DNA from: Escherichia phage phi92 | Length of the DNA stretch: 64,000 bases | Sequence record: NC_023693.1 | Strand: one strand, 5' to 3' | Shown here: in pieces, positions 11,915 through 52,772 of the stretch | Numbering within the stretch: the stretch's first letter is position 1 | How the letters are laid out: the number at the start of each line of letters is the position of its first letter | Translations under genes and position numbers: made by a program | The notes under the pieces: generated by a model | Seen by the model: the letters and a program-made list of their open reading frames with translations, nothing else | Databases searched by the model: none | What the model was told of the DNA's origin: nothing

Positions 11915-11953
11915 AAATAAAGCCCCTAGAATCGCTTCTAGGGGCTTTTGTTT
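11915..11953. terminator. bidirectional rho-independent terminator at the plus/minus convergence point
   Basis: perfect 10 bp stem GCCCCTAGAA-tcgc-TTCTAGGGGC flanked by A-run upstream and TTTTGTTTG downstream. Confidence 0.6.
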
Positions 11954-12015: not shown

Positions 12016-12273
12016 TTAGGAATGCATAAAATCTTCTTCAGGGCAGGTTGAGAGATAAGAGATGCACGTTGGGACAACAACAACATTATCTTTAAGGTTT
12101 GCAACCAAGCCTTTTGTAATTCCAGCCACTGCTCCGTTAATATCTGCTTGACGGATACCAAAACCTTGTTGTGCGGATAGATAACAAAATCCCTCACCTT
12201 TCTGTTGATTATTATTGAAGTAATAAACGTAGTGCATCATAAAATGGTCTTTAACGATTTGTTCTGTGGTCAT
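12016..12273 (-). CDS. hypothetical protein
   Basis: 85 aa, AGGAGA SD. Confidence 0.5.
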   Translation of the reverse strand: MTTEQIVKDHFMMHYVYYFNNNQQKGEGFCYLSAQQGFGIRQADINGAVAGITKGLVANLKDNVVVVPTCISYLSTCPEEDFMHS

Positions 12274-12285
12274 AATATTCTCCTA

Positions 12286-12310
12286 TAAGAAAAGGGGCTT
12301 TCGCCCCCTT
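12286..12310 (-). terminator. rho-independent terminator downstream of Sir2-like gene
   Basis: AAGGGGGCGAAAGCCCCTT hairpin then TTTTCTT on minus strand. Confidence 0.45.
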
Positions 12311-12317: not shown

Positions 12318-13130
12318 TTATTTAGTCAAATGATCTTCTATCATTTTTATGAAAGCAGGATTGCTAAAAGCATCTGCGGCCTTTTCTCGATAAACAAAGA
12401 CTCCTCTATCTTCGTAAAGAAGAGTTTCTTCGTAATTAATTCCTGGGTTAACAACAATCATTTTTGTACCCATATTAAGTGCAGGGAATAATTCCCAATT
12501 AAAATTGATAACTTGGTTTGAACATCCTACTACAACAACCAAATCTTGCATGGTCAAAGTATCAAACAAGTGAGCCATATCTGCATACAAAGGTGCAGCC
12601 TCACCAAAAAATACAACATTAGGCTTCACCCAGTTGTAATCATCTATGTTTATACTGTTGTAACCAATATCTACCAGTGTTTTGTAATCCCCAGGATGCA
12701 TACGGTAAACTACTTCAGGAAGATATCCGTGCACGTGGATAACAGAATCCCTGTCTACACCTGCTCGCTCTAGTAGATCATCAACGTTTGTTGTCAAGTT
12801 TACTACTTGGTTAGGATATTCCTTAAACCACTTTGCTATTTGAATATGTGCAGCATTAGGTTGTACATCTTTAAGCTCAACACGTCTTTTGTTATAAAAT
12901 TCGTGTGTTTTGGCATACAAATCCATACCGTTTTCATCTACACCACCAACCACTGGAAGATCTGGTGATGTTCTCACACGATAACCTGCTTGGAAAGCTC
13001 CAATATCGCAGATCTCTTCTAAATCCCATTCTTCCCATAGGGCACGACCACTATCTGTGTCTGTTCGGAATGTTCGAATCCCACTATCTGCACTTAAACC
13101 AGCTCCACTAACAAAAATTACTCTTCGCAT
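12318..13130 (-). CDS. Sir2-family (sirtuin-like) NAD-dependent protein
   Basis: GAGLSADSGIRTFR NAD-binding motif, NAAH...TTNVDDL...HVHG catalytic-His block, VVFFGE, VVVGCS, VVNPG; no CxxC zinc ribbon seen; GAGGA SD. Confidence 0.75.
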   Translation of the reverse strand: MRRVIFVSGAGLSADSGIRTFRTDTDSGRALWEEWDLEEICDIGAFQAGYRVRTSPDLPVVGGVDENGMDLYAKTHEFYNKRRVELKDVQPNAAHIQIAKWFKEYPNQVVNLTTNVDDLLERAGVDRDSVIHVHGYLPEVVYRMHPGDYKTLVDIGYNSINIDDYNWVKPNVVFFGEAAPLYADMAHLFDTLTMQDLVVVVGCSNQVINFNWELFPALNMGTKMIVVNPGINYEETLLYEDRGVFVYREKAADAFSNPAFIKMIEDHLTK

Positions 13131-13687
13131 TCAATATCCTCTTCGTAATCATCATCCCAAGAAGATGCGTCGTAACGCTCTTCCTCTTCGAAATCCCAGT
13201 TAATTTCTACCCCAAAATCTAAAAACAATTTAACAATGTTTTCTGTAGAGTAGTATTTATCATAAGCATTAGCTAGTTCCCAATACTTATCACTCAATTT
13301 TTTATAAGTAGGATCATTATAGTCATAATCTACTTTATAACCATAGTCATACATCTCTTGTTCAGCTTTAAGCATAGCTTCTGGTGTAAGAAGATTAGGG
13401 AACGGACGATTTCTTTCTTTTAACTTAGAAGCGATCCAGTTTGCAACATTCGCCACTTCACCATCTCGATTATCACCTAAACAACTTGCATAATCTCCAT
13501 CTTCGTAAGTGCCTAAATCCCCACTTACTTCATGTACAATAGATGAATACGATCCACACGTTTCACAATCTGAAAAAGTGTCTACTGTTGTAATATCAAT
13601 AGATAAAACTGGTAAAGCCATAGCTTCTTTCACACAAGCCTCCTCATATAATAACATGTCATCAAAACCCATATATCCTCCAGACAA
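13118..13687 (-). CDS. hypothetical acidic protein
   Basis: 189 aa, very acidic C-terminus. Confidence 0.55.
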   Translation of the reverse strand: MSGGYMGFDDMLLYEEACVKEAMALPVLSIDITTVDTFSDCETCGSYSSIVHEVSGDLGTYEDGDYASCLGDNRDGEVANVANWIASKLKERNRPFPNLLTPEAMLKAEQEMYDYGYKVDYDYNDPTYKKLSDKYWELANAYDKYYSTENIVKLFLDFGVEINWDFEEEERYDASSWDDDYEEDIECEE

Positions 13688-13712
13688 ATAAAGCCCCTGC
13701 TTGGGGGCTTTG
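13686..13712 (-). terminator. rho-independent terminator
   Basis: AGCCCCCAAGCAGGGGCT hairpin then TTATTTG on minus strand. Confidence 0.4.
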
Positions 13713-13727
13713 GTTAAGTTTTACGGA

Positions 13728-14339
13728 TTATACCAGACTTTTAAGGTACTTGTCAAGGGCTTCTTGATCACCTTGACAAACATAGCAACGGAAGTCTTGA
13801 GCAGAAGGTTCTTTGTCCTCGTCCCAATCCCAATAGACAGTACCTTTATAGCGTGAGCCTGGGAACTCGAAGTATGCCACATGAGTAATATGGTGTGGGC
13901 CACCCCAAAACTCTGTAAAAGTAAATTGAGGATACGCTGCTTTAACTGTATTTTCAAACCAAGTTTTACGATCTAATGCTTCGTTTATAAAATAAGCATG
14001 GCGTTCCATTTCATCCCAATCTTTCCAAACGCATTTTTCATCCAGAGAGAAAACAAAATTTTCACTGTTAAACTCGTCTGTATCTGATTCCAAAATATCA
14101 TAGTCATGTGCACTAGGTATCCACCATCCAGCTTCTAATAGTGCTTTTGCAGGTACAAAACCTTTTTCAGCGTATTGGTCAAATTCTTTTACTCTACGTA
14201 CAGTGCAGTATTCATCTTCACCACCAATGTCCAATAGACAAGCGCCTCTGCGTCTTGCTGCAAGACCATGTGTATCAAAAACTACAACGCTACCTTCACC
14301 ATCTTCACGATCTACTTGATATGCAACTTTTTGAGTCAT
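13728..14339 (-). CDS. hypothetical protein
   Basis: 203 aa ORF. Confidence 0.55.
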   Translation of the reverse strand: MTQKVAYQVDREDGEGSVVVFDTHGLAARRRGACLLDIGGEDEYCTVRRVKEFDQYAEKGFVPAKALLEAGWWIPSAHDYDILESDTDEFNSENFVFSLDEKCVWKDWDEMERHAYFINEALDRKTWFENTVKAAYPQFTFTEFWGGPHHITHVAYFEFPGSRYKGTVYWDWDEDKEPSAQDFRCYVCQGDQEALDKYLKSLV

Positions 14340-14462: not shown

Positions 14463-15452
14463 TTATTCCCCCATAGATTTAAGAATATGTGCAATGACAG
14501 GTATAGTCCAACCGTTGCCTAACATCTTATATGCTTGTGTGTTACTACTCACTTTAAAGTAATCGTCTGGAACACCTTGTAAGCGGCAACACTCTTTAAC
14601 CGTTAACTTTCTATAATGTACGCCTTCACTCAATTTTTCAAAAGCATCTAGATATCTTCCAGGTGGAATGTAGGCTAATAGTACGTCTTTAGGCACAGTC
14701 GTGAGGCAACGAGTTTTTTCACTGTTCTGAACTTCCAAACAATGTACCAAACGATCAGTTTTAGATGTACTACGTTTGCCATTTTCATTAATTCTACGCC
14801 CATATATTGCTGCTGGATAAAAAACCAGTTGTCTGCGACTCTTTTCAAAATACTGTTCTATATTACCACCTTTGGCATAATTTGCATCTATGCAATAAGC
14901 CTTATCTCTGTCTACAATACTATCATCTTCAATGATATCTTGCAACACTTCATTGGTAATATCCCAGGGTTTTATTTCCCAGTTGCACCAGTATAAACGT
15001 TGTCTATTCTGTGCCGTGAAATCTGCGGAGTTAATGAATACGGGATCAACACCTAAGTAACTTGTGATCACGTTTTCCCACTCCACTTTCATCTTAACGT
15101 TTTCAAGCATGAACTTAACATTAGGGTTAAACTTTTTAATATGTTCAAGAATCTCAACATATTCGAAGAATAGCTTAGATCGCGGATCTTGAAAGTTCAA
15201 ACCTTTACCAGAAGAAGAGAAGCCTTGACACGGACTACCACCTAACAAAAGATCAATTTCTCCCCACGGAATATCCCATTCTCTCCATTTTGTAACATCA
15301 CCTAACTGAATAATATCTGGAAAATTTGCTTGGCTTTCAGCTATGGCGAATTTGTCTAATTCTGAAGCATAATATGTATCTACTTCAATACCTGCACTTT
15401 TTAGCGCAAGCATTCCTCCTGACATACCATCAAAAAGACTTAAAACTTTCAT
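14463..15452 (-). CDS. DNA (cytosine-5)-methyltransferase
   Basis: motif I LSLFDGMSGG, motif IV GSPCQGFS, motif VI ENV, motif VIII QNRQR. Confidence 0.85.
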   Translation of the reverse strand: MKVLSLFDGMSGGMLALKSAGIEVDTYYASELDKFAIAESQANFPDIIQLGDVTKWREWDIPWGEIDLLLGGSPCQGFSSSGKGLNFQDPRSKLFFEYVEILEHIKKFNPNVKFMLENVKMKVEWENVITSYLGVDPVFINSADFTAQNRQRLYWCNWEIKPWDITNEVLQDIIEDDSIVDRDKAYCIDANYAKGGNIEQYFEKSRRQLVFYPAAIYGRRINENGKRSTSKTDRLVHCLEVQNSEKTRCLTTVPKDVLLAYIPPGRYLDAFEKLSEGVHYRKLTVKECCRLQGVPDDYFKVSSNTQAYKMLGNGWTIPVIAHILKSMGE

Positions 15453-16205: not shown

Positions 16206-16726
16206 ACAACCTCCTCGTAGTTGTTATTGTGTTTTACTGTCTCAACATACAATAAAGATTCCATCTGTAATACATTACCAGAAACAATAAACCCATAAGC
16301 CATTTCAGATGTGTCTATATCATATGCCCCGTCTTCCGGTTTAGCAAAGTGTAAAACTATTTCATCTGGGTTTTCTTCATCCCATAGTTTAGAAATTTTC
16401 CGAACCAGAATGTTAGCTAAAATAGTTGACATTCGGGATAAAGCTGTATCCTCATATCTTTTAAAACCTAGCCAATAGAGGTTAAGAATTTCTACTTCTT
16501 CTTGTGTTAAGTTTTTGTCTAAAGTAATCAGATCTGTAGAGCACGGCGTTTTTGTTGAACCTACTGTTACAAAACCTGGAGTATTATGAAAAACAATCTT
16601 AACTTTATCACGTATAAAGTTTAAACCTTGTGCCTCAACTATATATTGTATTGTAGGTACAATATCGTTTGTTACATCAATAAAACTATCTTTAATGACG
16701 CTTATATTATTTCTGGACAAGACCAT
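16202..16726 (-). CDS. hypothetical protein
   Basis: 174 aa. Confidence 0.55.
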   Translation of the reverse strand: MVLSRNNISVIKDSFIDVTNDIVPTIQYIVEAQGLNFIRDKVKIVFHNTPGFVTVGSTKTPCSTDLITLDKNLTQEEVEILNLYWLGFKRYEDTALSRMSTILANILVRKISKLWDEENPDEIVLHFAKPEDGAYDIDTSEMAYGFIVSGNVLQMESLLYVETVKHNNNYEEVV

Positions 16727-17285
16727 TCTCCTCTAAAATAGGCTTAATAAATTCGAAAATTTGTTTTTTACTTTTACCTCGAATATTAAAACAAGGAACA
16801 TTAAACTTTTTAGCCAACATCCAAGCTGTTCTTGTACCACCTAAAGGATCTCCATTTTTATCTGTATTTGCACAAGCTAAAAGAAAACAAGATGGTTTTG
16901 GATTCTCAAGATCTCTTCCAAGAACTTGGTGGATATTTCTTTGATGTAATTTTTTAGCACCTTGAGATAATCTGTCCCAAGCTGGATGCAATTCTTTTGC
17001 ATATTGCAAGGTTAGAGCATAGTTTACACTATCTGGTCTGTCAAGAACAATAACCTCTCCCTCTATTTCATTACCTTTAAACGAGAGCCAAGGGATGTAT
17101 ATTTCTTTCTTTGTATTGTTCCCACTATCATATACACCGCATTCAAATGCGGAATCTGCACCTTCTGCTTTACCAGATCGCAAAATGAACCATGTAGATA
17201 GCCATTTTGCAACAGATACCATAGTATCCCATTCTTCGTCTGTAATATCTCTGCTACCAACACCTGTGTAGAATAAATCGCTCAT
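16707..17285 (-). CDS. DprA/Smf-like (SLOG-type Rossmann) nucleotide-binding protein
   Basis: start set at internal ATG 17285 (AAGGAG SD); GVGSRDIT...SGKAEGADSAFECGV resembles DprA/SLOG glycine-rich signature. Confidence 0.4.
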   Translation of the reverse strand: MSDLFYTGVGSRDITDEEWDTMVSVAKWLSTWFILRSGKAEGADSAFECGVYDSGNNTKKEIYIPWLSFKGNEIEGEVIVLDRPDSVNYALTLQYAKELHPAWDRLSQGAKKLHQRNIHQVLGRDLENPKPSCFLLACANTDKNGDPLGGTRTAWMLAKKFNVPCFNIRGKSKKQIFEFIKPILEENGLVQK

Positions 17286-17295
17286 GGTTTTCTCC

Positions 17296-17616
17296 TTAAC
17301 AAGTAATATTGGGAGTAACAATTGGATTAACAATTGGAGTGATAGGGTACGTAAACCAAGGGCTTCCAATTTCCCAAGGACTATAAGGTCTACGAGGATC
17401 AAATGGAGGAGTTACTTCAGGCTTTTTCCAAATCTCCGCTAGTTGTTTCTTCCATTTATCCCTTGCTGTCTCATTATCTTCATCCAACTGTTCATCATTA
17501 TCTTTTATTTCTGGTTTTGGAAATAAAAGCTCTTTGACTAACTCAACATCTTCCGTCTCAATAGTAGTTTCTTTCGTAAGTTCTCCTACTGTTTCTTTAA
17601 TTGTGATTTTATACAT
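17296..17616 (-). CDS. hypothetical protein
   Basis: 106 aa. Confidence 0.5.
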   Translation of the reverse strand: MYKITIKETVGELTKETTIETEDVELVKELLFPKPEIKDNDEQLDEDNETARDKWKKQLAEIWKKPEVTPPFDPRRPYSPWEIGSPWFTYPITPIVNPIVTPNITC

Positions 17617-18362
17617 TAATCCTCCTCTAAAGTAGAATAAAATTGTAACGTATTTGAATCATCAAAATATGCAAAGGTTAAATTACCATTGAAGCAAGAT
17701 CCTGTGTCCATATATACCCTATTACTGCTAATCACAGGTTTAGGAACATAAGAATGCCCGTGAAATACATAATCTACTCCTGAAACCCTAGGAAGAAGAA
17801 TCCCTTCAAGTGCGCAATCTATCATATCACGATCCCACATTAAAGATTCTGTGAATCGAGATACTTGCTCTTTATTCATATTCAAACAAAATGGCAAAAC
17901 TTCTGTCACTGGTAAATGTTCCAAAACTGAAGGATACCCACCGTGAATAAAGCCTAGTTTCATATCACGATAATTGACAACAAGTACAACAGGTAAATCT
18001 TCTAGCATCAAAGCAAGAGCAGTTGCACCCTCTTCTCCACACTCGTCTAGAACTGTATGGCCTCCGTTCTGAAACCAACATTCGTAATATCGTCTATCAC
18101 CTTCTAGCAACCCTTTAATCATCATATCTTCATGATTTCCACGAATACCATAACGATTTAGCTTTCTGGTGAATTCAACAACACAACGAAAATTCTGCTT
18201 GCCGCGATCTGTAAGATCTCCTAAAGATACAACAACATCTTGATCTCGGATACCTAAAGTATTAACACCTTTCTGGTACAAATCAAAGCAACCATGTAAA
18301 TCACCAATAATAAACAGGTCTTGATCATCTTTTACACTAATTTCTTGATATACTAGCATCAA
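17616..18362 (-). CDS. Ser/Thr protein phosphatase (calcineurin-like metallophosphoesterase)
   Basis: GDLHG, GDLTDRG, GNHE metallophosphatase motifs. Confidence 0.75.
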   Translation of the reverse strand: MMLVYQEISVKDDQDLFIIGDLHGCFDLYQKGVNTLGIRDQDVVVSLGDLTDRGKQNFRCVVEFTRKLNRYGIRGNHEDMMIKGLLEGDRRYYECWFQNGGHTVLDECGEEGATALALMLEDLPVVLVVNYRDMKLGFIHGGYPSVLEHLPVTEVLPFCLNMNKEQVSRFTESLMWDRDMIDCALEGILLPRVSGVDYVFHGHSYVPKPVISSNRVYMDTGSCFNGNLTFAYFDDSNTLQFYSTLEED

Positions 18363-19492: not shown

Positions 19493-20155
19493 TTATTTAA
19501 TATTCAATTTTGCACAAAGACGTTGTACCGCTTTGGCATCGAACAAACTCCCACGAATAGTTCTCTTTCCTGATTCATTCAGATGTTTTGCAATCGTCAT
19601 ATATGGCGTTTTACAAGCTCTGTATGCAACTAAAGAATCTTTTAAAGAAAGCGCAAACTCTTTTGAGCGTTTTGCTTCTTCCGTTTTCGTATAATCTGTT
19701 CTTTTGTATTTAGGGTTTGCTGCACCAAGAAGCGTTCCCTTCGCTTTTGCTACTTTAAGGCTCTTCTTAACACGATCAGATATTGCACGAGCCTCTTCTT
19801 CTGCCAGAACTGCTAAAATATTTATTATCATATTTTCAGCGGAGGGCATAGTTGCTATTCGTACATTAATCATCTCTAACAAGGTTGCAACAGAAGCTGT
19901 GTTACGTCCAAGACGGTCAACCTTAGCAACAACAAGTGTAGCACCTGTTTCTTTGCAAAGATTAACAGCTTTTACAAGCTCTCTACGTTGCTTCCAATCG
20001 CCTTTACCCGAATAAAACTCTGCAAAGCTACCTACAATAGTATAATTTTCTTGTGAATCCAGGAAGCGTTGAATATCTGCTTCCTGTGACTCTATACCAT
20101 ACTGGTTGCCTTGTTGTTTCTTCTTAGAAAGTCGATGATATAGTACAAACTTCAT
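19493..20155 (-). CDS. serine recombinase (resolvase/invertase family)
   Basis: N-terminal YHRLS...Q, LVVAKVDRLGRN, ILAVLAEEEARAISDRVK...AKG blocks typical of resolvase catalytic domain; basic C-terminus. Confidence 0.6.
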   Translation of the reverse strand: MKFVLYHRLSKKKQQGNQYGIESQEADIQRFLDSQENYTIVGSFAEFYSGKGDWKQRRELVKAVNLCKETGATLVVAKVDRLGRNTASVATLLEMINVRIATMPSAENMIINILAVLAEEEARAISDRVKKSLKVAKAKGTLLGAANPKYKRTDYTKTEEAKRSKEFALSLKDSLVAYRACKTPYMTIAKHLNESGKRTIRGSLFDAKAVQRLCAKLNIK

Positions 20156-24260: not shown

Positions 24261-24527
24261 TTACTCCGCAATCTGAGCCATGAATTCACGTAGTTCAGAA
24301 AAACCTCCTACGTGGGTTAGCTGTTCACCATCTTCCACAAAAATCTGAGGAAATGTGCGTGGTAGAACACCTGTTTTCTCTAAAACCAGATTCTGAATCT
24401 GATCTAAAGAATAGTCTTCATCTAAGGTAAGGTATTTAAAATCCTGTTCACGCTGTTCTAGTAGAATCTTAGCGTTAGTGCAGAAAGGACAATTTGGTTT
24501 ACCGTAGATAATAAAATTCATTTTCAC
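24261..24527 (-). CDS. glutaredoxin (NrdH/Grx-like)
   Basis: CPFC active site near N-terminus, 88 aa. Confidence 0.75.
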   Translation of the reverse strand: MKMNFIIYGKPNCPFCTNAKILLEQREQDFKYLTLDEDYSLDQIQNLVLEKTGVLPRTFPQIFVEDGEQLTHVGGFSELREFMAQIAE

Positions 24528-25354
24528 TCCTTGTTTAAAAGTATAGTTAAAGTTCTTACAATACCGCTATCAACACTTCGCGGATTTAAAGTAGGATCTG
24601 TTTTTAAATAAGATGTTGCTGGTCTGACTGCTTTGGAATTATAGGTTGAAGCAGATACAGGATTAACTGTAACAGACAAATCTATAACAAGAAATATCTT
24701 TCGTGCAAAATCATACCAAGAAATATAATCTGCACCTGCATAGTGTACAATTTTACTATTTACACCATCTTTTACAAGTTTAAAAATTGTTTCTGCAAGA
24801 TCAGGTGCATAAGTAGGACATGATAAATGATCACATACTACATTAAATTCTTTTTGACCACCGTTGTAGCGTTCCAACATAGTTTTCAAAAAGTTATGTC
24901 CAAATTCACTATAAACAGAAGCTGTTCTGATAATAAGTGCTGTAGGACAAACTGCTTGTACTAAAGTTTCACCTAATTGTTTACTGTAACCGTAGGTGTT
25001 CAAGGGGTTTGTTTTACTCTCTTCTGTGCCAGCAACATGTCCATCAAAAACATAGTCTGTTGAAATATGTACAAACTGTATCAGTAAATCATTACATGCT
25101 TTGGCAATGTTTGTTGCACCGTATGCATTAACATTTATACAGGTGTTAACATCTTCTTCAGCTTTATCTACTGCCGTGTAAGCCGCACAATTCACAACAA
25201 CATCAGGCACATGCTGTACAAGACTATTCATAACATCTTTAAAGTTGGTAATGTCTATATCACTTGCTTCAATCAAAACAACATCTTCTGGTGCAACTTT
25301 TGCCAAAGATTGTCCTAATTGACCTTTTGAACCAAAGACTAAAAATTTTGTCAA
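24524..25354 (-). CDS. rmlD: dTDP-4-dehydrorhamnose reductase
   Basis: N-terminal Rossmann FGSKGQLGQ and RmlD-like length; last gene of rml operon order. Confidence 0.75.
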   Translation of the reverse strand: MTKFLVFGSKGQLGQSLAKVAPEDVVLIEASDIDITNFKDVMNSLVQHVPDVVVNCAAYTAVDKAEEDVNTCINVNAYGATNIAKACNDLLIQFVHISTDYVFDGHVAGTEESKTNPLNTYGYSKQLGETLVQAVCPTALIIRTASVYSEFGHNFLKTMLERYNGGQKEFNVVCDHLSCPTYAPDLAETIFKLVKDGVNSKIVHYAGADYISWYDFARKIFLVIDLSVTVNPVSASTYNSKAVRPATSYLKTDPTLNPRSVDSGIVRTLTILLNKE

Positions 25355-25905
25355 AATATGATCTCCTTTAGTGTTTTGGCTTCCTGATCTTTTTGTGACA
25401 AGATAGGTTTAAAATTAATATCATTAAAGATTAAATCAAAACCCCAATCTATATTGATATCTGGATCATTCCACGCAAGACTACACTCTGAAGTCGGATC
25501 GTAATATTCTGTACATTTGTATTCAAAATCAGCAATATCACTAATCACAACAAAGCCATGAGCGAAACCAGGAGGAATCCAAAATTGTGTTTTATTCTTT
25601 TCAGATAAGAGAACACCTACCCATTCTCCAAATGTTGGACTACCAACCCTAATATCTACAGCAACATCATAAACTTCACCACGAACACAGCGTACCAACT
25701 TCCCTTGTGGGTTTTTCTTTTGAAAATGAAGCCCACGTAGAACTCCTCGGATAGAACGTGAATGGTTATCTTGGACAAAGTTTTGTTTACCTATGTATTG
25801 ATCATATAAAGCCTGATTAAAACTTTCTAAGAAAAAGCCACGTTCATCTCCGTAAACGTCAGGTTGAATGATCAACAAATCTTCGATTTTTGTTGCTTGA
25901 ATCAT
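25351..25905 (-). CDS. rmlC: dTDP-4-dehydrorhamnose 3,5-epimerase
   Basis: RGLHFQ cupin signature, 184 aa. Confidence 0.8.
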   Translation of the reverse strand: MIQATKIEDLLIIQPDVYGDERGFFLESFNQALYDQYIGKQNFVQDNHSRSIRGVLRGLHFQKKNPQGKLVRCVRGEVYDVAVDIRVGSPTFGEWVGVLLSEKNKTQFWIPPGFAHGFVVISDIADFEYKCTEYYDPTSECSLAWNDPDINIDWGFDLIFNDINFKPILSQKDQEAKTLKEIIF

Positions 25906-25917
25906 TTAATTCCCCTT

Positions 25918-26787
25918 TTATTTTAATTTAAGTAAATACTTACCGTAGTCTGTTTTACTTAAAACCTCTCCAGAACTTTTTACAGAGTCTAAAGTAATCC
26001 ATTCATTTTTAAAAGCAATCTCTTCCAGGCATGCAACCTTCATACCTTGTTGCTTCTCTATTGCATGAACAAATTGAGATGCTTCCATAAGACTTTCATG
26101 TGTTCCTGTATCCAGCCAAGTGAAACCTCTTCCTAGTTTACAGACACGTAAAGTCTTTTCTTTCCAGTACATCTCATTTATATCCGTAATCTCTAACTCC
26201 CCTCTAGCAGAAGGTTTAACGCTCTTAGCTTTCTGTATAACAGAATTATCGTAAAAGTACAAGCCTGTGATTGCGTAGTTGCTTTTTGGTGTTTTTGGTT
26301 TTTCTTCAATACTCACCACTGTACCTTCAGAATCAAACTCAACAACACCAAATCTTTCAGGATCATTTACGTGATACCCAAAGATATTAGCTCCACCATT
26401 CTTTTCAATATGTTCTTTAGCAGAATCTAAAATGCTACCAAAACTCTGACCAAAGAATAAATTATCACCTAGCACAAGTGCTACAGAATCTTCACCAATA
26501 AAGTTCTCACCAATAATAAACGCTTCTGCTAAACCTTTTGGGCTATCCTGTATTGCATACTGTAGGGAAATACCAAAAGAAGAACCATCACCTAGAAGAT
26601 TTACAAAATTAATTTGATCTTCTGGTGTTGTAATTATTAGTATTTCCCTAATTCCAGAAAGCATTAGGACAGAGAGTGGATAATAAATCATAGGTTTATC
26701 GTAAATTGGTAATAGTTGTTTACTAACCCCTTTAGTAACTGGGTAAAGCCTTGTTCCACTACCACCTGCTAAGATAATACCTTTCAT
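25918..26787 (-). CDS. rmlA: glucose-1-phosphate thymidylyltransferase
   Basis: [18 protein letters not shown] nucleotidyltransferase signature, 289 aa. Confidence 0.85.
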
Positions 26788-26795
26788 ACTCCTCC

Positions 26796-27785
26796 TTAAA
26801 CTTTATTTTCCCACCACTCTTTGTTATCTACATACCAATCAATGGTTGAATAAAGTTTTTCTTCAAATGTGCCTTTAGCTTTCCACCCTAATTCCTTTTC
26901 AATCTTATAAGGATTCACTTCATATCTTAAATCATGCCCAGGCCTATCTGTAACCATCTCAATGAGGCTACAAGCATCTGTTTCAGATGGATATACCGCA
27001 TCCATATAATCACAAATCATATAGATTACATCAATATTAGTTCTAGGGTTTCTGCTCCCAATATTATATGTCTCTCCAGATTTGCCTTTAGTTACTACTA
27101 GGTGTAATGCCTCTGCGTGATCGTCAACGTATAACCAGTCTCTTACTTGAAGACCATTACCATAAACAGGGATTGGTTTATGCATTAAGATATTTGTTAT
27201 CGTTTTAGGTATTAGTTTTTCTGGATGATGATATGCTCCAAAATTATTTGAACAATTTGTTATAACTGTCGGAATACCATAAGTACGATGCCACGCTCTT
27301 ACCAAATGATCGCTTGCAGCTTTAGATGCAGCATATGGACTACTTGGTTTATAAGGATTCTGTTCTGTAAACGGATAATCTCCTTCTTCCAGATCACCAT
27401 ACACTTCATCTGTTGAAATATGATGGAACATTTTAAGATTTGATTTATCTCCCATTAAACGAACAGCTTCTAGAAGATTAAATGTCCCAACAATATTTGA
27501 ATTTATAAAAACACTCGGTGATGCTATTGAATTATCTACGTGACTCTCTGCTGCAAGATGCATTATATAATCTGGATTAACATCTGCCACAATCTTAGCA
27601 GTTAACTGCGCATTTGTCAAGTCAACACGACAAAACTTTACATTAGGTGTTTCTGATAAATTCCTAGGGTCTGAAGCGTAACCCCATTTATCTATAACGT
27701 AAATATCATTCTTAGTATTTTTAGCTAGGAAACGAACTACCGCACTTCCAATAAAGCCTAAACCACCTGTTACTAAGTATTTCAT
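26796..27785 (-). CDS. rmlB: dTDP-glucose 4,6-dehydratase
   Basis: [12 protein letters not shown]-binding motif, SDR-type YxxxK region, 329 aa. Confidence 0.85.
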
Positions 27786-40593: not shown

Positions 40594-40620
40594 AGCCCCC
40601 GAAGGGGCTTTATTTCTTAA
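40594..40620 (+). terminator. hairpin with plus-strand T-tract (antisense to surrounding genes)
   Basis: AAGCCCCCGAAGGGGCTT then TATTTCTT on plus strand; no T-tract on minus strand. Confidence 0.3.
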
Positions 40621-41339
40621 GCAATGATTGCTGCGATATTAGGTTTAACAAAGGTAGATGGTTTCATAATTTTACCTTTGTCATCAAAGAATACGTACAC
40701 CTTTTGAACTTCGTTATATACAGCATGTACCCCAGTATAAGAACCTTCTGCACGATCTTTGCTTCGCATCTCGATAGCATCGCACTCTTTTTCAAGAGCT
40801 TCAATAATATCCTTAGTTTCCCAAATAGCCAGGAGTTGCTTCTTGGTAGGATACTTGGACTCATTACTATTCAACACTTCACGCATAACCTTCTTCTCGT
40901 TATAAACAGAACGCACCAAAGTATCTCGTGCCATACGTGTAAGTGTAAGAGACATTAGGGCAAATTGCAAGTCATTTTCTACCATTTTATCAAATTCAAT
41001 GATAACATCGTAGATGTTTTCTGCCAGAACATCTCCTGTCGGCATTTCCAGAGCTTTATCAACACCTTCTTTACCAAAGAACATAAATGCCAGGTAGGAT
41101 GCTACCACAAAAATATCTGCTGCTGCATCAAGTAATTCAACGTGATCATTTTCCTGTGCTGCTGCTTGGAACTCTTTTAGTTCTTCGCGTACAAAAGAAA
41201 GTTGAGCTTCAAACATCTCTTGAGTAAATTCTGGAGTTACTCCACCGCGTGCCTTAGCATTCCAAGCAACAATTTGATCGGCAGCTTTGATAAAGAAGCT
41301 ATTGTCCACTTTTACTTGTTTGAAAAAATTCTCGATCAT
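40617..41339 (-). CDS. MazG-like all-alpha NTP pyrophosphohydrolase (tentative)
   Basis: EMFEAQLSFVREELKEF....ELLDAAADI resembles MazG/HisE helical metal-binding motif. Confidence 0.4.
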   Translation of the reverse strand: MIENFFKQVKVDNSFFIKAADQIVAWNAKARGGVTPEFTQEMFEAQLSFVREELKEFQAAAQENDHVELLDAAADIFVVASYLAFMFFGKEGVDKALEMPTGDVLAENIYDVIIEFDKMVENDLQFALMSLTLTRMARDTLVRSVYNEKKVMREVLNSNESKYPTKKQLLAIWETKDIIEALEKECDAIEMRSKDRAEGSYTGVHAVYNEVQKVYVFFDDKGKIMKPSTFVKPNIAAIIA

Positions 41340-43393: not shown

Positions 43394-43798
43394 TTATTGT
43401 AGCTTAAGTGAACTGCGAAGACGTTCCTCTTGCTGATCACGAATATGTTGTGGAACCTCATGAATTGAATCGTTACCGTGCCTATTCTCCACAACTAAAG
43501 AAATAACTTGATAACCAAACTCTTCAGCAAGAGTTAAATAGGGTTTAAGTTCTTTTTCTGTAGTAGAGGTATTAGAAACAATAATCTTTTCAACACCATA
43601 CTGCATATATTTTTGTACTTTGACACGACACCATTGGTGTGCTTTATGGATATTCTCTTGTTTCCACTCATACACACCATCTTCAGTGTAGTGGTATTGA
43701 TCTGCCTCACAAATAGGCCAATGATTTTCAGAGATAATTTCTGCTACTGTAGATTTACCTGCACCTGAAACACCACGTAAAATGATAAGTTGTTTCAT
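43394..43798 (-). CDS. P-loop kinase (polynucleotide kinase-like)
   Basis: Walker A GVSGAGKST at N-terminus, 134 aa; resembles kinase domain of T4 Pnk. Confidence 0.6.
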   Translation of the reverse strand: MKQLIILRGVSGAGKSTVAEIISENHWPICEADQYHYTEDGVYEWKQENIHKAHQWCRVKVQKYMQYGVEKIIVSNTSTTEKELKPYLTLAEEFGYQVISLVVENRHGNDSIHEVPQHIRDQQEERLRSSLKLQ

Positions 43799-44731
43799 TT
43801 AGCCTCCAAAGAAGTTTTCTATTTCTTTACGTCGCTCTTGTGGATCTAAAGCAGCCCATTGAGTCTTAGTAAAGTTGTTTCGAAGCCATTCTAGCAAAGT
43901 ATAATATTCTTCGTCAACAATTTGTTTAGCATTGTTTGGGTTGTCCCAAATCATATCCCACTTCTTATTGCCACCACGCATAAGGAATTTTTTAGCAAGA
44001 TAGTATGGTGACTTAATCTTTAACAGTAAGTTAAACGGGTAGTTTGTTTCACGAACAACAAACCCTTCGTGTTTACAATGTTTAGACATTTCAACAACAT
44101 CTGAAAATTTAATCATCGGATAAACTTCAGGACGTTTAAATTTTGTAACAGATGCAATCCCATCAAGAACACCTTCAGGTAACATGAAACTTGTCCCATC
44201 AAGATTTTGAATTCTTGCTCCAATTAAGTATGCGCCTGGTTCTTCTTCGACAATATGTGGGTCAGAAGGATCACAGATTTCAAAAAGAAAAGTTGCTTTT
44301 GCACTTTCTGTCCACTTAATGAAATACTCTATGTCGTCACACTCGGAAACAATACGGTTCTTTGCCATAATTGCGAAATCTGATTCTAGGCTCCCTGTTG
44401 TTGATACAACAAGTTTCCCTTTGTACACACCTACAGATGCCACAAAACCGTTTACTTTACGGACAGCATCTACAATTTCGTCTGCTGGAAGATCTGTACC
44501 ATTTTCAAAACGATTAAAGATTTTAGTAAAAGGCCAAATAACAACATTGTCTTCTGAGTCAACAACCAACCCACGACAATCTAAAAGTCGTTTGTCAACG
44601 TTCCACAAGTTATCCCAGAATACATTGTTTTTGTATTTAAGTACAGCAAGACCAGCATACTCTCCAGATTTAACTTCTTTTTTATGCACTAAACCTTTTG
44701 CAATCAGGTCATCACAATTGAACTTAGCCAC
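43799..44731 (-). CDS. ligase-family nucleotidyltransferase (RNA-ligase-like)
   Basis: motif I VRKVNGF (Kx[ND]G), motif IV EGFVVRE, motif V LLLKIK; second ligase besides the DNA ligase at 41537-42700. Confidence 0.55.
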   Translation of the reverse strand: MAKFNCDDLIAKGLVHKKEVKSGEYAGLAVLKYKNNVFWDNLWNVDKRLLDCRGLVVDSEDNVVIWPFTKIFNRFENGTDLPADEIVDAVRKVNGFVASVGVYKGKLVVSTTGSLESDFAIMAKNRIVSECDDIEYFIKWTESAKATFLFEICDPSDPHIVEEEPGAYLIGARIQNLDGTSFMLPEGVLDGIASVTKFKRPEVYPMIKFSDVVEMSKHCKHEGFVVRETNYPFNLLLKIKSPYYLAKKFLMRGGNKKWDMIWDNPNNAKQIVDEEYYTLLEWLRNNFTKTQWAALDPQERRKEIENFFGG

Positions 44732-44732: not shown

Positions 44733-45284
44733 TTAATCTCCTTTGATTATCTTATGATGATCTACAACAATAATATCACGCTTATCCATAATAGAGATGA
44801 TTTCGTCAAAATGCAAGATTTTCCCGTGTGCATCCCAACCAACATCCAACATTTTCCCATACAAATGATCAGGGAATGATCCGTGAGAGTGTCCGTGTAG
44901 CATGATTGATCCATGCCCTTGTTTATTCCAGGCAGCCATAGGGTAATGACTTAAGACGAAGAACAGCTTCTGATATTTCACTTCGTCATAATACAAAACT
45001 TCTCCATACTCTGCAAGCACTTTTCTGTGTTTGCTGTAATCATGGTTCCCAACACAGTAAGTAATATCCCCTTGGAGACGGGAAGCAATCTTACGGGTAT
45101 CTTCTTCAGTCCCGAAACAGAAGTCCCCAAGATGGTACATCTTTACTCCTGGTGTTGTGGCACATTTATTCCATGCTTCGATCAGTGCTTCTGTCATATG
45201 CTCCATATCTTCCCACGGACGATATTCAGGAGCAAACTCTCGGATACGTTTGTGCATAAAATGCAAATCACTTGTAATAAACAT
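44733..45284 (-). CDS. metallophosphoesterase (calcineurin-like phosphoesterase)
   Basis: SDLHF, GDF, GNHD, HGHSH motifs. Confidence 0.75.
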   Translation of the reverse strand: MFITSDLHFMHKRIREFAPEYRPWEDMEHMTEALIEAWNKCATTPGVKMYHLGDFCFGTEEDTRKIASRLQGDITYCVGNHDYSKHRKVLAEYGEVLYYDEVKYQKLFFVLSHYPMAAWNKQGHGSIMLHGHSHGSFPDHLYGKMLDVGWDAHGKILHFDEIISIMDKRDIIVVDHHKIIKGD

Positions 45285-45801: not shown

Positions 45802-46143
45802 TTAATAATTAACACGTTTAATTTCAACACCATAGGATGAAATAAAATTTTCCTTAGCTAACATATATTTACCAGCAGCAGAAGGATTTGATGTATGAAC
45901 ATAGATAGTTTTAAGAGCATCCCATTCACCCGCGTACAACATACATTCTACGTCTAAGAACGCATGATATCCTTCTTGATCTTCTCCAAGATCATTATCG
46001 AAGTGTATCTCTGAGATATTATTGAAATTATCTTCATCTGAAACAAAAGATAACCAATCCTCAAAAGATTTTAACCAAATGGCATCCTCATAACCATAAT
46101 CTTTAGGATCTCTTAAATCGTCTAACCAAAGAATTTTAGCCAC
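45802..46143 (-). CDS. hypothetical protein
   Basis: 113 aa. Confidence 0.5.
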   Translation of the reverse strand: MAKILWLDDLRDPKDYGYEDAIWLKSFEDWLSFVSDEDNFNNISEIHFDNDLGEDQEGYHAFLDVECMLYAGEWDALKTIYVHTSNPSAAGKYMLAKENFISSYGVEIKRVNY

Positions 46144-48178: not shown

Positions 48179-49072
48179 ATGAAAGTTAGTATTCTACATG
48201 GTGTTGGCTGTTATGTTACTGATGTAGACGTTAAAGTCTTTACATTCTCTGGTGGAGAACAACATGTTCAACTAGACACGAATCTATCAGGTTTCAATCA
48301 TGCTACAGACAGAATCTTACTCTCTTTAGAAGTAAGATCTGCTAAAGACTTGATGACTTTGGTTATGACTAAGAATGCATTGGACAATATGCTATATCAT
48401 AAACCATATTGTGTTGATTTGCTCATGTTGTATGTGCCATATGCACGACAAGACAGAGTGTGTGAACCTGGGGAAGCATTCGGAGTTAAAGCATTTGCTT
48501 CTATAATTAATTCATTAAATTTCTCACGTGTTATCGTTGCTGATCCACATAGTGATGTTACTCCAGCGGTGTTTGACAGACTCTGTGTAATACCTCAAGA
48601 AGAAATTGCTTACGAAACTTTAAAGTGGAAGTTACGTATGGAGAATTTTGCTCTTGTTAGTCCTGATGGTGGTGCTCTTAAGAAAATATTTAAATTATCT
48701 AAGAAAATGTCTTTAGATGTGTTCTGTGCAGAGAAGGTTAGAGATACTGCAACAGGTGCTATTGTTCGTACAGACATTTCTGTACAGGATTTCAATAAGC
48801 GTAACCTGATGATCGTAGATGATATCTGTGACGGCGGTAGAACTTTTATTGAATTGGCTAAAGTGCTACGTGCTCGTAACGCAGGTAAGATTGAGTTATA
48901 TGTTACACACGGTATCTTTTCTAAAGGTCTTAAAGAGTTAAGTGAGCACTTTGACTGCATTCATTCTCTTAATGTGTGGGAAGATAACATCCAAGAAGAT
49001 TCCGGTGTTCTTGTTAAGAATCAGTCAGATTTGCAACAACAAATTGTATCTCCATACGTGTGGAATTTTTAA
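48179..49072 (+). CDS. ribose-phosphate pyrophosphokinase (PRPP synthetase) family protein; candidate ADP-ribose pyrophosphate synthetase (Adps-like)
   Basis: VSPDGGALKK and PRPP-binding-type IVDDICDGGRT motifs; AAGGAG SD. Confidence 0.8.
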   Translation: MKVSILHGVGCYVTDVDVKVFTFSGGEQHVQLDTNLSGFNHATDRILLSLEVRSAKDLMTLVMTKNALDNMLYHKPYCVDLLMLYVPYARQDRVCEPGEAFGVKAFASIINSLNFSRVIVADPHSDVTPAVFDRLCVIPQEEIAYETLKWKLRMENFALVSPDGGALKKIFKLSKKMSLDVFCAEKVRDTATGAIVRTDISVQDFNKRNLMIVDDICDGGRTFIELAKVLRARNAGKIELYVTHGIFSKGLKELSEHFDCIHSLNVWEDNIQEDSGVLVKNQSDLQQQIVSPYVWNF

Positions 49073-49143: not shown

Positions 49144-50877
49144 ATGAATATTTTTGCACCTTTTGCTACTGATTGGTATAAACCTGGTCACAAGCAGATG
49201 TACAACCAAAATACAAAACTCATTTTCTCTAATTTAACTCCTCGTAATGATAAAAACTTTGCACACTATGCAGATCGTGAAGCACGTGGTGTGATTGTTT
49301 TAGGTATTCGTCGAGCAGTCACTGATGCTCTTGTAACTATGTGGGATAGCTTCTTTAAAATGTCTCGTAGTGCAGCAGTAAATAAATTTTATCGTATGTC
49401 TAAAAATGCATTAGGTGCTTCTGCTCCTTCTGCTGAATGTTGGGAAGAATTGCACGATTTAGGTTATCTTCCGCTAGAAGTTCGATCTCTGCCAGAAGGT
49501 GTTTTGTGTCCTATTGGTGTTCCTGTGTTTACTGTGCATAATACTTTAGAAAAATTCTTTTGGTTAACTAACTATGTGGAAACACTATTGTCAGATGAAA
49601 CTTGGAAGACAATGACTAATGCCACAGCAGCTTTTCAGTATAAGCGTATCGCTATGGCGTATGCGATGGCAACGTGTGATAACATTGATCACGTTAATTT
49701 CCAGTGTCATGACTTTAGCCTACGTGGTTTAAGCAATATCGAAGATGGTTATAAGAGTGGTATCGCTCATTTGGCATCTTTCACAGGAACAGATAACATT
49801 CTGGCTATTGAGACTGTGCATGATTATTATGGTATTGATTATGATCAGTTTGTTGCAGGTTCTATTCCGGCAACAGAACATTCAGTAGCAACGACTAACA
49901 TTGGAGCTATTGTTGAAGATCTGAAGAAACATTTCCCACATCTTAAAGATGATGTTGATGGGCTTCGTTATGTAGCAGAGAAAGAGTTTCTTCGCCGCTA
50001 TATTGAAGAAATTGTTCCAGAAGGTTTTTGTTCATATGTAGCAGATTCTTATGATTACTGGGCTGTCTTGACTCGCATTCTGGTAGAATTGAAAGAGTCC
50101 ATTATGTCACGAAATGGTCGTCTTGTTATTCGTCCAGATTCAGGAGATCCGGTTAAAGTTGTTGCAGGATACAATGTTGAATCTTTTGCTAACTATGAAG
50201 ACCTTTTAAATAATGGTATTGCTACAGCCACTGAAGTAGTTCATTTGGCTGATGTTAATAAGTATTACAATGTTCTTCAGGATTGCAGTGTTGCTGATTG
50301 TATTGATGAAACTTATGAGATTCCTTATTGTGAAGCAGTAGGTTCTATTCAAATCCTTTGGGAAGTGTTTGGTGGTACTATCAACCGAAAAGGCTACAAG
50401 GTTCTTGATCAGCACATCGGTATGATTTATGGTGATTCTATTACTGTTGAACGAGAATACGAGATCTTACGCCGACTGAAGAAGAAAGGTTTTGCAGCTT
50501 CCAATATTGTATTTGGTGTTGGTAGTTATACTTATCAGTTCAATACACGAGATACTTTTGGTTTTGCTGTTAAAGCAACAGGTAGTATCATCGGTGAACA
50601 CGAAATTTTGGTAAGTAAGGAGCCTAAAACTGATCCTGGTAAACGCTCTGCAAAAGGTTTTATTAAGGTTGTTAAGGATACAAATGGTAAACTTTCTCTT
50701 GTGGATAATCTTTCTTTTAAAGATATCCAAGATGAAGACAATGAGTTAAAAGTTATCTTCAGGGATGGTACGGTTATTACACCACAAGTAGAAGGACGTG
50801 ATGAAACATTTACTGATATCCGCAACCGTGTTGATGTAGAGGTTCTTCGTACTATGGGAACCATCCAGGTTGACTAA
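49144..50877 (+). CDS. nicotinamide phosphoribosyltransferase (NAMPT) family protein; candidate nicotinamide ADP-ribose transferase (Namat-like)
   Basis: N-terminal TDWYKPGH (DSYKxxH-like), RPDSGD, FGVGSYTYQFNTRDTFGFAVKAT blocks of NAMPT family; AAGGAGA SD. Confidence 0.8.
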   Translation: MNIFAPFATDWYKPGHKQMYNQNTKLIFSNLTPRNDKNFAHYADREARGVIVLGIRRAVTDALVTMWDSFFKMSRSAAVNKFYRMSKNALGASAPSAECWEELHDLGYLPLEVRSLPEGVLCPIGVPVFTVHNTLEKFFWLTNYVETLLSDETWKTMTNATAAFQYKRIAMAYAMATCDNIDHVNFQCHDFSLRGLSNIEDGYKSGIAHLASFTGTDNILAIETVHDYYGIDYDQFVAGSIPATEHSVATTNIGAIVEDLKKHFPHLKDDVDGLRYVAEKEFLRRYIEEIVPEGFCSYVADSYDYWAVLTRILVELKESIMSRNGRLVIRPDSGDPVKVVAGYNVESFANYEDLLNNGIATATEVVHLADVNKYYNVLQDCSVADCIDETYEIPYCEAVGSIQILWEVFGGTINRKGYKVLDQHIGMIYGDSITVEREYEILRRLKKKGFAASNIVFGVGSYTYQFNTRDTFGFAVKATGSIIGEHEILVSKEPKTDPGKRSAKGFIKVVKDTNGKLSLVDNLSFKDIQDEDNELKVIFRDGTVITPQVEGRDETFTDIRNRVDVEVLRTMGTIQVD

Positions 50878-51624: not shown

Positions 51625-51700
51625 GGTTCCATAGCTCACTGACGAGAGCGCACACCTCATAAGTGTCGAGGGCAGGGATTGTAACCCTGGGGAACCACCA
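51625..51700 (+). tRNA. tRNA-Met/Ile2-like (anticodon CAT), non-canonical T-loop
   Basis: manual fold: acceptor GGTTCC/GGAACC, D-stem GCTC/GAGC, anticodon loop CTCATAA, T-stem CAGGG/CCCTG with loop ATTGTAA, CCA encoded. Confidence 0.5.
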
Positions 51701-51731
51701 TTTAAAAGGAGGTGCTATGCATCTCCTATAT

Positions 51732-51817
51732 GCAAGTGTGGTGGAATTGGTGATACACATTGTGCTTAAAACGCAACGCTTAAATGCTTGAGGGTTCGAA
51801 TCCCTCCACTTGCACCA
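51732..51817 (+). tRNA. tRNA-Leu (anticodon TAA)
   Basis: manual fold: acceptor GCAAGTG/CACTTGC, anticodon stem TTGTG/CGCAA, loop CTTAAAA, long variable arm, T-arm GAGGG-TTCGAAT-CCCTC, CCA. Confidence 0.7.
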
Positions 51818-51833
51818 ACACCTAAAAAATATC

Positions 51834-51862
51834 TTGACATTTACTTAGTTTTTTGTTATAGT
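51834..51862 (+). promoter_or_regulatory. sigma70-like promoter (TTGACA-N17-TATAGT)
   Basis: immediately upstream of tRNA-like element at 51874. Confidence 0.45.
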
Positions 51863-51873
51863 TACTATGAAAA

Positions 51874-51955
51874 CGGGGTGTATCTCACCTGACTTCTAAT
51901 CAGGCGTTAACCGAGTAATTGGAGTATGCAGGTTCGAATCCTGTCACCCCGGCCA
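51874..51955 (+). tRNA. tRNA-like element, identity unresolved (candidate anticodon loop CTTCTAA)
   Basis: acceptor CGGGGTG/CACCCCG, T-arm GCAGG-TTCGAAT-CCTGT, CCA; perfect hairpin CCTGA-CTTCTAA-TCAGG but no D-arm found by eye. Confidence 0.4.
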
Positions 51956-51973
51956 AAAAGTTTTAAAAACTAC

Positions 51974-52002
51974 TTGACAAGCAAGATAGTTTTATGTTAG
52001 AT
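51974..52002 (+). promoter_or_regulatory. sigma70-like promoter (TTGACA-N17-TTAGAT)
   Basis: upstream of tRNA-Ser at 52019. Confidence 0.4.
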
Positions 52003-52018
52003 TTAAAGTATGATAACT

Positions 52019-52108
52019 GGAAGGTAGGGCGCAGCGGTGCGCAACCAGGTTTGAACCCTGGCCCATTGTAGCGATACGGTGATGGTTCGACTCCATTATC
52101 TTCCTCCA
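52019..52108 (+). tRNA. tRNA-Ser (anticodon TGA)
   Basis: manual fold: acceptor GGAAGGT/ATCTTCC, anticodon stem CCAGG/CCTGG loop TTTGAAC, long variable arm, T-loop TTCGACT, CCA. Confidence 0.65.
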
Positions 52109-52114
52109 AATTCA

Positions 52115-52279
52115 ATGAGTGATTTTATGAATTATAAAACTATTGGACAGGTTGTTACCGGAGTTAAGATTGTAAATAATAAAGTTGTTTATGAGTATTC
52201 TAATCTTCAACAATCTGAAGATGGTAAGAATATTCGTATGGTAAAAACAGAACAAAAAGATTCCGGTTGTTTTGAATAA
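52115..52279 (+). CDS. small hypothetical protein inside tRNA cluster
   Basis: ORF between tRNAs; start uncertain (ATG 52115 or 52127); weak SD. Confidence 0.3.
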   Translation: MSDFMNYKTIGQVVTGVKIVNNKVVYEYSNLQQSEDGKNIRMVKTEQKDSGCFE

Positions 52280-52287
52280 TTAAAAAC

Positions 52288-52373
52288 GGTAGATTGGTGA
52301 AATGGTAGCCACAACAGTTTGCTAAACTGTCGTCGGAAACGGCGTGTAGGTTCAAGTCCTACATCTACCGCCA
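52288..52373 (+). tRNA. tRNA-Ser (anticodon GCT)
   Basis: manual fold: acceptor GGTAGAT/ATCTACC, anticodon stem ACAGT/ACTGT loop TTGCTAA, long variable arm, T-arm GTAGG-TTCAAGT-CCTAC, CCA. Confidence 0.7.
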
Positions 52374-52583: not shown

Positions 52584-52588
52584 AACAT

Positions 52589-52767: not shown

Positions 52768-52772
52768 TATAG

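Follow-up and report, generated by a model that had tools for sequence, protein, structure and literature searches.

What does a virulent phage gain from an enzyme of the sirtuin family? The question is raised by a gene on the minus strand, at positions 12318..13130, of a 64,000-nucleotide stretch of Escherichia phage phi92 (NC_023693.1), the whole of which is called the window below. According to Pfam, PHROG, an alignment and an AlphaFold2 model, this open reading frame (ORF) of 270 amino acids encodes a zinc-less viral sirtuin that is derived from the class III enzymes. Our favoured, if tentative, reading of the sequence and the model is that the product is a protein-lysine deacylase, dependent on nicotinamide adenine dinucleotide (NAD+), with a diverged range of targets.

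A sirtuin-family gene without zinc ligands

The gene begins with an ATG, seven bases after a GAGGA Shine–Dalgarno sequence. Its product scores 80 bits with the Pfam SIR2 model (PF02146), for which the cut-off is 24 (E = 2.8e-22), and PHROG 2162, ‘Sir2 (NAD-dependent deacetylase)’, covers residues 1-269 (E = 3.3e-104). Among sequences of solved structure the first match is E. coli CobB (E = 6e-18), followed by Sir2Af2, Sir2Tm and SIRT5. The AlphaFold2 model has a mean predicted local distance difference test score (pLDDT) of 91.4 and a predicted template modelling score of 0.88, and a Foldseek search with this model again returned CobB as the best match (E = 7e-18, template modelling score 0.85 on the target), then Sir2Af1, Sir2Af2, SIRT5 and SIRT2. 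A chance ORF or a pseudogene can be dismissed, given the scores of the profiles, conservation over the full length and a fold predicted with high confidence. We are therefore as good as certain that the gene is a real, intact and CobB-like member of the sirtuin family.

Conservation was assessed in an alignment of 64 phage homologues and CobB (65 sequences). A first-pass annotation of this locus had proposed a Sir2-family protein with a full motif set, and in keeping with the Pfam and PHROG matches all of the motifs that it quoted were found; like the gene, they lie on the minus strand. The NAD+-binding motif GAGLSADSGIRTFR (residues 9-22, 13065..13106) contains G9, A10, G11, S16, G17, F21 and R22, which are invariant or nearly so, CobB included. 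In FYNKRR (residues 78-83, 12882..12899) the residues Y79 and R82 take the positions of the Tyr/Arg pair of class III in AFYNARR of CobB. This pair holds the distal carboxylate of succinyl- and malonyl-lysine in SIRT5 and CobB. TTNVDD (residues 113-118, 12777..12794) is the counterpart of TQNIDN in CobB, with D117 nearly invariant, and HVHG (residues 132-135, 12726..12737) contains the catalytic His134. The first-pass annotation had made its proposal hinge on conservation of the catalytic His and Asn positions; H134 aligns with the His of HMHG in CobB, N115 aligns with CobB as well, and neither varies in the 65 sequences. VVFFGE (residues 172-177, 12600..12617) is the FGE motif that binds acyl-lysine and peptide, with V172, F175 and E177 invariant, and VVNPG (residues 226-230, 12441..12455) carries N228, the adenosine-ribose-binding Asn of sirtuins. 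The positions listed as invariant in the alignment are S16, F21, R22, F78, Y79, R82, R83, P91, N92, H95, N115, H134, G135, F175, E177, D196, G202 and N228.

The first-pass annotation had also noted that the zinc module is missing, and here it was right. The segment that is equivalent to the zinc ribbon, as located by alignment with CobB and in the model (residues 136-168, 33 amino acids, 12627..12725, minus strand), contains no Cys, and the equivalent segment has none or one in 64 of 64 phage homologues, compared with four in CobB. C41 and C203 are the sole cysteines of the whole protein, and CxxC pairs are absent. The model nevertheless keeps three beta-strands in this region (135-143, 151-154 and 167-172). 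Strands that are predicted despite the loss of cysteines suggest that the zinc module has been retained minus its metal ligands. It is well supported that the phage clade derives from CobB/SIRT5-type class III enzymes, that it has lost the four zinc cysteines and that it has kept the beta-strand module.

On the substrate-binding side a clade-specific and highly conserved motif, GCSNQVINFNW (residues 202-212, 12495..12527, minus strand), replaces GTSGHVYPAAG of CobB. The acyl-lysine tunnel positions V172, F175 and V207 are still hydrophobic. The cofactor loop of the phage clade has a short conserved insertion (FRTDTxSG), and a further insertion of 22 amino acids (residues 50-71, 12918..12983, minus strand), seen in the alignment and modelled at a pLDDT of about 88-90, lies in the helical small domain. 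The latter is confined to the phi92-like phages and a handful of other lineages; it is absent from the rV5-like, T5-like and KVP40-like proteins and from CobB. The family is acidic, with a median isoelectric point of 5.0 and a median net charge of -13, and of its conserved basic residues only R2 and K223 have no counterpart in CobB.

Is the gene peculiar to phi92-like phages? Judged by sequence it is not; it is a member of a widespread and already annotated phage family. Homologues were found by tblastn in 990 of 50,697 phage records. Their identity to the phi92-like query is 95-100% in phi92-like phages, 50-60% in T5-like Demerecviridae, 47-48% in rV5-like Vequintavirinae, 36-39% in Vibrio phages of the KVP40/nt-1 type and 29-38% in jumbo phages. 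Thus some 2% of sequenced phage genomes carry a zinc-less sirtuin, including T5-like, rV5/phi92-like, KVP40-like and jumbo phages that serve as models or are relevant to therapy. The best 120 relatives in a large protein database are single-domain proteins of 240-299 amino acids, and those that are named or lie on long contigs belong to phages. An annotated product of phage SD2 is 100% identical to the protein studied here, and other Justusliebigvirus proteins are 96-99% identical. By megablast the window is 99.5% identical to Escherichia phage phiWec187 and 99.1% to PaulScherrer (Bas60), which are phi92-like virulent myoviruses (Justusliebigvirus, Stephanstirmvirinae). In close relatives the gene is labelled cobB, ‘sirtuin family protein’ or ‘Sir2 NAD-dependent deacetylase’; in PaulScherrer it is bas60_0185. 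The loss of the zinc site was reported in 2016 for the Sir2/CobB proteins of Vibrio phages phiSt2, phiGrn1 and KVP40, in a paper that also names T5, SPC35, GAP32 and My1 as sirtuin carriers (PMC5107563). The zinc-less phage family is thus known and annotated, and is not a discovery of this work.

Some of the existing records contain annotation errors. In one Klebsiella phage record the Sir2 homologue bears the name ‘nicotinamide-nucleotide adenylyltransferase’, and in Pectobacterium phage DU_PP_V the name ‘tail assembly protein’. In the T5-like phage slur09 (NC_028840.1, L005:7142-7648) the label ‘Sir2 (NAD-dependent deacetylase)’ has instead been given to the HAD_SAK_2 phosphatase downstream of Sir2. 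Several ‘Campylobacter phage’ records with C. jejuni as host (MG065689.1, MG065662.1 and others) are at least 90% identical in this region to E. coli phages of the phi92-like and rV5-like types, and the A110a Sir2 protein is 98.5% identical; the C. jejuni host labels look doubtful.

Possible functions of the phage enzyme

Several features of the protein make us lean towards a deacylase: the catalytic set is complete, the FGE motif, the residues of the tunnel and the Tyr/Arg pair are present, the surface is acidic, and every one of the nearest structures is a deacylase. CobB and SIRT5, which belong to class III, have deacetylase, desuccinylase and lipoamidase activities. Modelling of a KVP40-like homologue in 2016 gave a deacetylase reading too (PMC5107563). 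How might such an enzyme work during infection? The host RNA polymerase would transcribe the gene early, from a sigma-70 promoter and jointly with that of a small acidic protein upstream. The enzyme would then bind NAD+ and an acyl-lysine of a host or phage protein, the likely acyl groups being acetyl or acidic ones such as succinyl and malonyl, and would yield nicotinamide, O-acyl-ADP-ribose and the free lysine. The altered loops on the substrate side (Thr for the Gln of TQNID, and VINFNW for VYPAAG) may give it a target range unlike that of the host CobB. Each turnover would cost one NAD+. This cost could in principle be recovered, once O-acyl-ADP-ribose has been de-esterified, by a NARP1-like gene pair elsewhere in the window. 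The NARP1 pathway (Adps plus Namat) rebuilds NAD+ from ADP-ribose and nicotinamide, and so defeats NAD+-depleting defence (bioRxiv 10.1101/2024.02.11.579819). If the phage protein is a deacylase, it would give the virus a direct handle on the acyl-lysine proteome of its host, in cells whose own sirtuin restricts phages.

A number of observations weigh against this. The CobB-type models of NCBIfam all score far under their cut-offs, the best of them reaching 104.8 bits against 243 (subfamily) and 84.5 bits against 320 (CobB equivalog). At least 90% of the phage clade has Thr114 where sirtuins nearly universally have the Gln of TQNID, and the strand with which CobB binds peptide (VYP) has been replaced. 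The Gln of TQNID contacts the nicotinamide ribose; a literature search on its mutation (SIRT5 Q140L) found nothing. No target protein is known and, as the first-pass annotation also held, the sequence does not reveal the substrate. The host CobB does not help phages T4 and lambda-vir, it restricts them (PMC4271551), which makes it unlikely that the phage copy is a plain duplicate of CobB. Our literature search found in-silico proposals only, and no biochemical or genetic experiment on any phage sirtuin; the PhageMaP work on phage Bas63 reports no data on a sirtuin gene, and the main text of the HIDEN-SEQ study of Bas54 (Vequintavirinae) does not mention the sirtuin. To these we add the neighbourhoods of the gene in other phages, which point to RNA-end and phosphate chemistry and not to protein modification.

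The neighbourhoods were compared in 84 loci: the window, three loci from GenBank and 80 from IMG/VR, the last with flanks of 10 kb. The ORFs of these loci were clustered, and the Sir2 proteins fall into 24 lineages at 65% identity. Gene order around Sir2 is conserved within phage groups only. No neighbour is common to all 24 lineages, which rules out a conserved partner gene across them, and a BLASTP comparison of the proteins encoded next to Sir2 in four lineages found none in common. In the rV5-like lineages (1, 8, 12 and 21) Sir2 has an RNA ligase and a kinase no more than 1.5 kb away. RudolfGeigy shows the order RNA ligase, cREC, Sir2 and MazG-like gene, and in rV5-like phages the kinase and a phosphoesterase are divergent next door. 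A distant second linkage to RNA ligase is seen on two jumbo-phage contigs in IMG/VR, L073:7582-10708 (a 608 kb contig) and L074:7026-10738 (266 kb). Here an Rnl1-type ligase, an arginase-family protein and a Sir2 protein that is 33-35% identical to the query are encoded on one strand, and in L074 a calcineurin-like metallophosphoesterase abuts the start of Sir2. In T5-like phages Sir2 is followed, after 0.3 kb, by a phosphatase of the ‘RNA repair’ type HAD_SAK_2, and phosphoesterases recur close to Sir2 in several lineages. In the phi92-like lineages (2, 4 and 9), which include the window, the gene for phrog_8514 is found directly upstream, with a DprA/SLOG-like gene at 2.7-3.6 kb and a calcineurin-like phosphoesterase at 3.7-4.5 kb.

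Could the phage sirtuin then be an RNA-repair enzyme? Iyer, Burroughs and Aravind (2022) assigned most viral sirtuins to a distinct clade and predicted for it a role in RNA repair like that of KptA/Tpt1, with rV5 as the prototype (PMC9503650). This alternative is missing from the first-pass interpretation, and the neighbourhoods of the rV5-like, T5-like and jumbo lineages back it in part. The enzyme would ADP-ribosylate the 2'-phosphate at a repaired junction in transfer RNA (tRNA) or another RNA; in the second step, attack by the ribose 2''-OH would leave an RNA 2'-OH and ADP-ribose 1'',2''-cyclic phosphate, and the neighbouring cyclic-phosphate and phosphatase enzymes would heal RNA ends or clear the by-product. 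The two-step chemistry of sirtuins is formally parallel to that of Tpt1, both mechanisms being established, and a route through a 2'-phosphate is conceivable since the phage kinase (134 amino acids, AAA_33) has no fused 3'-phosphatase domain. In the window, however, the genes of this neighbourhood (RNA ligase, cREC, kinase, MazG, HAD phosphatase) are not beside Sir2. The kinase (43394..43798), the Rnl1-type RNA ligase (43799..44731), a phosphoesterase (44733..45284) and cREC (45814..46134), all on the minus strand, form an RNA-repair cluster about 31 kb away, and the genes of RNA-repair type overall, with a MazG-like gene at 40617..41339, are 27-33 kb away. The T5-like phages, which are the largest group of carriers, appear to be without an Rnl1-type ligase at the sensitivity of tblastn: such ligases were found in 755 phage records, 16 of which are Salmonella-phage records, as opposed to 289 Salmonella-phage records with Sir2. 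An acidic protein family with so few new basic residues is ill-suited to RNA binding, the hydrophobic residues of the acyl-lysine tunnel and the peptide-binding FGE motif are invariant, and what cREC and HAD_SAK_2 do has itself been predicted from context. The Pfam, NCBIfam, PDB-sequence and Foldseek results contain no match to the Tpt1/KptA family or structure, only sirtuins. We also know of no sirtuin that acts on nucleic acid. On balance we regard an RNA-repair role, the main rival of the deacylase reading, as possible but doubtful; if true, it would extend sirtuin chemistry to nucleic acids. A bolder version, which we think unlikely, makes the zinc-less clade the first phosphate-acceptor sirtuins, and not deacylases, with cREC, the HAD phosphatase and the metallophosphoesterase returning the by-product to ADP-ribose and NARP1 returning this to NAD+, in an RNA-repair loop that would be NAD+-neutral.

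The same first step of the sirtuin reaction, the displacement of nicotinamide, requires only residues that are conserved in the phage protein, and so could serve mono-ADP-ribosylation of a host or phage protein or of a small molecule during host takeover, as in SirTM, SIRT4 and SIRT6. With the Gln of TQNID gone and the loops on the substrate side reshaped, transfer could be favoured over deacylation, and phages often ADP-ribosylate host proteins (PMC9503650). This too we consider improbable: the nearest relatives are deacylases and not SirTM-type enzymes, the catalytic His is kept along with the Tyr/Arg pair of class III, as would be expected of a deacylase, and no macrodomain partner is seen, either by Macro matches in ten flanking proteins or among the genes annotated in the curated PaulScherrer record. 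The first-pass annotation had offered a further option, an NAD+-consuming effector in phage–host or inter-phage conflict comparable to ThsA, DSR or SIR2-HerA, and this we disfavour most clearly. The fold is that of Sir2 and NAD+ would be consumed, and the NARP1-like pair could conceivably shield the phage from its own NAD+ depletion. The carriers, however, are virulent phages that need NAD+, many of which (the T5-like ones) appear to have no NAD+ salvage genes. The protein is a single domain of 270 amino acids with no sensor, HerA, SLOG or pAgo partner, the adjacent phrog_9509, phrog_8514 and phrog_15991 being without assigned function, and no defence Sir2 is found among the top 50 structural matches. 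A PADLOC scan gave no significant match, just a partial one to PDC-S65, an uncharacterised candidate (13.8 bits, E = 0.0066), and a defence-type Sir2 was rejected on this account. We rate this kind of effector as very improbable. Between these alternatives the deacylase reading keeps our tentative preference, and under this as under the RNA-repair reading the phages contain an NAD+ consumer while they also fight NAD+-depleting immunity.

Transcription unit and genomic setting

The first-pass annotation had given the gene its own terminator. A terminator-like hairpin is indeed present directly 3' of the stop codon, at 12283..12310 on the minus strand (AAGGGGGC-GAAA-GCCCCUU then UUUUCUUAU, with a GNRA loop and a U-run; 12310..12292, -13.7 kcal/mol). 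Its stem varies in a compensatory manner in three Sir2 lineages (GGGGC/GCCCC versus GGAGCC/GGCTCC), with the U-run preserved, which argues that the hairpin is functional. It does not end the unit, however, which continues into an ORF of 85 amino acids (phrog_15991; 12016..12273, minus strand) that starts 19 nucleotides beyond it and is the last gene of the leftward unit. Rightward and leftward units converge on a strong bidirectional terminator at 11919..11948 (both strands, -22.1 kcal/mol).

Nor is the gene solitary. Upstream of Sir2 lies the ORF of the small acidic protein (184 amino acids; phrog_9509, no assigned function) at 13118..13672 on the minus strand. Its last 13 nucleotides overlap the start of Sir2, which suggests translational coupling. 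In the clustering of neighbourhoods this ORF occurs in one Sir2 lineage only, so it is ruled out as a general partner of Sir2. Still further upstream, a sigma-70 promoter with a TG extension (TTGACA-N18-TATAAT, 13727..13756, minus strand) matches the consensus; it is the sole 12/12 match on either strand of the window. In relatives with about 70% Sir2 identity it is kept as TATA(A/G)T, though the promoter overlaps the end of a gene of 203 codons, including the stop codon, and constraint on that protein could explain part of the conservation. From the promoter we infer that the Sir2 unit is probably transcribed early by the host polymerase. A hairpin between promoter and acidic ORF (13690..13711, minus strand) could be the terminator of the unit upstream or a 5' stem-loop.

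The protein of 203 amino acids, phrog_8514 (13728..14339, minus strand), is encoded directly upstream of Sir2 in three Sir2 lineages. Its AlphaFold2 model is confident (pLDDT 90.3), and a fold search with this model found no informative structural neighbour. In a database of 5.8 billion proteins phrog_8514 has about 23 sequence clusters, and those on long contigs resemble phi92-type phages of about 150 kb. Beyond it lies a block with a Dcm-like C5 methyltransferase (14463-15452), the DprA/SLOG-like protein (16707..17402), which is a separate gene 3.6 kb from Sir2, and a recombinase. The calcineurin-like metallophosphoesterase (17616..18362, minus strand) is 4.5 kb upstream of Sir2. The recombinase is of the serine type (Pfam Resolvase, E = 8e-22; 19493-20155, minus strand) and is carried here by a virulent myovirus. 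Four consecutive genes at 24524-27785 (minus strand) are annotated in close relatives as a complete dTDP-L-rhamnose pathway (RmlA/B/C/D-like), which is unusual cargo for a virulent phage.

An NAD+-rebuilding module in the same phage, as the first-pass annotation had suspected, is borne out by two genes on the plus strand about 36 kb from Sir2. A Prs-like gene (48179..49072; Pribosyltran/Pribosyl_synth), the candidate for Adps, is followed by a Nampt-like gene (49144..50877; NAPRTase), the candidate for Namat. The adjacent pair matches the NARP1 arrangement, with a putative activity specific for ADP-ribose. A separate lineage links NAD+ salvage directly to a sirtuin: at L071:8057-10705 a NAMPT gene, with the domains NAMPT_N and NAPRTase, precedes a Sir2 homologue by 466 bp, both genes being on one strand. 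T5-like genomes are not in the spread of tblastn matches to the Nampt-like protein, and the host and genus counts of the three tblastn searches argue against an obligate coupling of Sir2 to either NAD+ salvage or the Rnl1 ligase. Directly after the NARP1-like pair there are 15 tRNA genes (51625-54544, plus strand). For one of these (52508-52583) ARAGORN reports a two-base anticodon, and PaulScherrer has an annotated tRNA-Lys at the corresponding position of the cluster.

Comparison with known systems

The defence Sir2 NADases (ThsA, DSR1/DSR2, SIR2-HerA/Nezha and SPARSA) share with the phage protein a Sir2 fold without zinc ribbon and the catalytic Asn and His. They differ in that the phage protein is encoded by a virulent phage and not in a host defence island, and that its nearest structures are deacylases. 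SirTM is macrodomain-linked, whereas the ten proteins that flank the phage Sir2 are without a Macro match. The likeness to Tpt1/KptA consists of the NAD+-dependent two-step chemistry and, in rV5-like and jumbo phages, the linkage to RNA ligase and healing enzymes. Tpt1/KptA are not themselves sirtuins, however, so that a functional analogy is all that has been proposed, and the Sir2 gene of the window is unlinked to its RNA-repair cluster.

With CobB and SIRT5 the phage protein shares the Rossmann core, GAGxS..FR, N115, D117, H134, the FGE motif, N228 and the class III Tyr/Arg pair. At about 27% identity to CobB it differs from that enzyme in having no zinc cysteines, Thr for the TQNID Gln and VINFNW for VYPAAG, as well as an insertion of four amino acids in the cofactor loop, and it is without the N-terminal extension of CobB-L. 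Closest of all are the other members of PHROG 2162 (SD2, PaulScherrer, phiWec187 and the T5-like, rV5-like and KVP40/phiSt2 proteins). Residues 50-71 set the phi92-like protein apart from its rV5-like, T5-like and KVP40-like relatives, as do its neighbours, the acidic ORF of 184 amino acids and phrog_8514 in place of the RNA ligase/cREC or HAD_SAK_2 found elsewhere. Common to these proteins are the loss of the zinc cysteines, the Thr in place of Gln and the motif GCSNQVINFNW.

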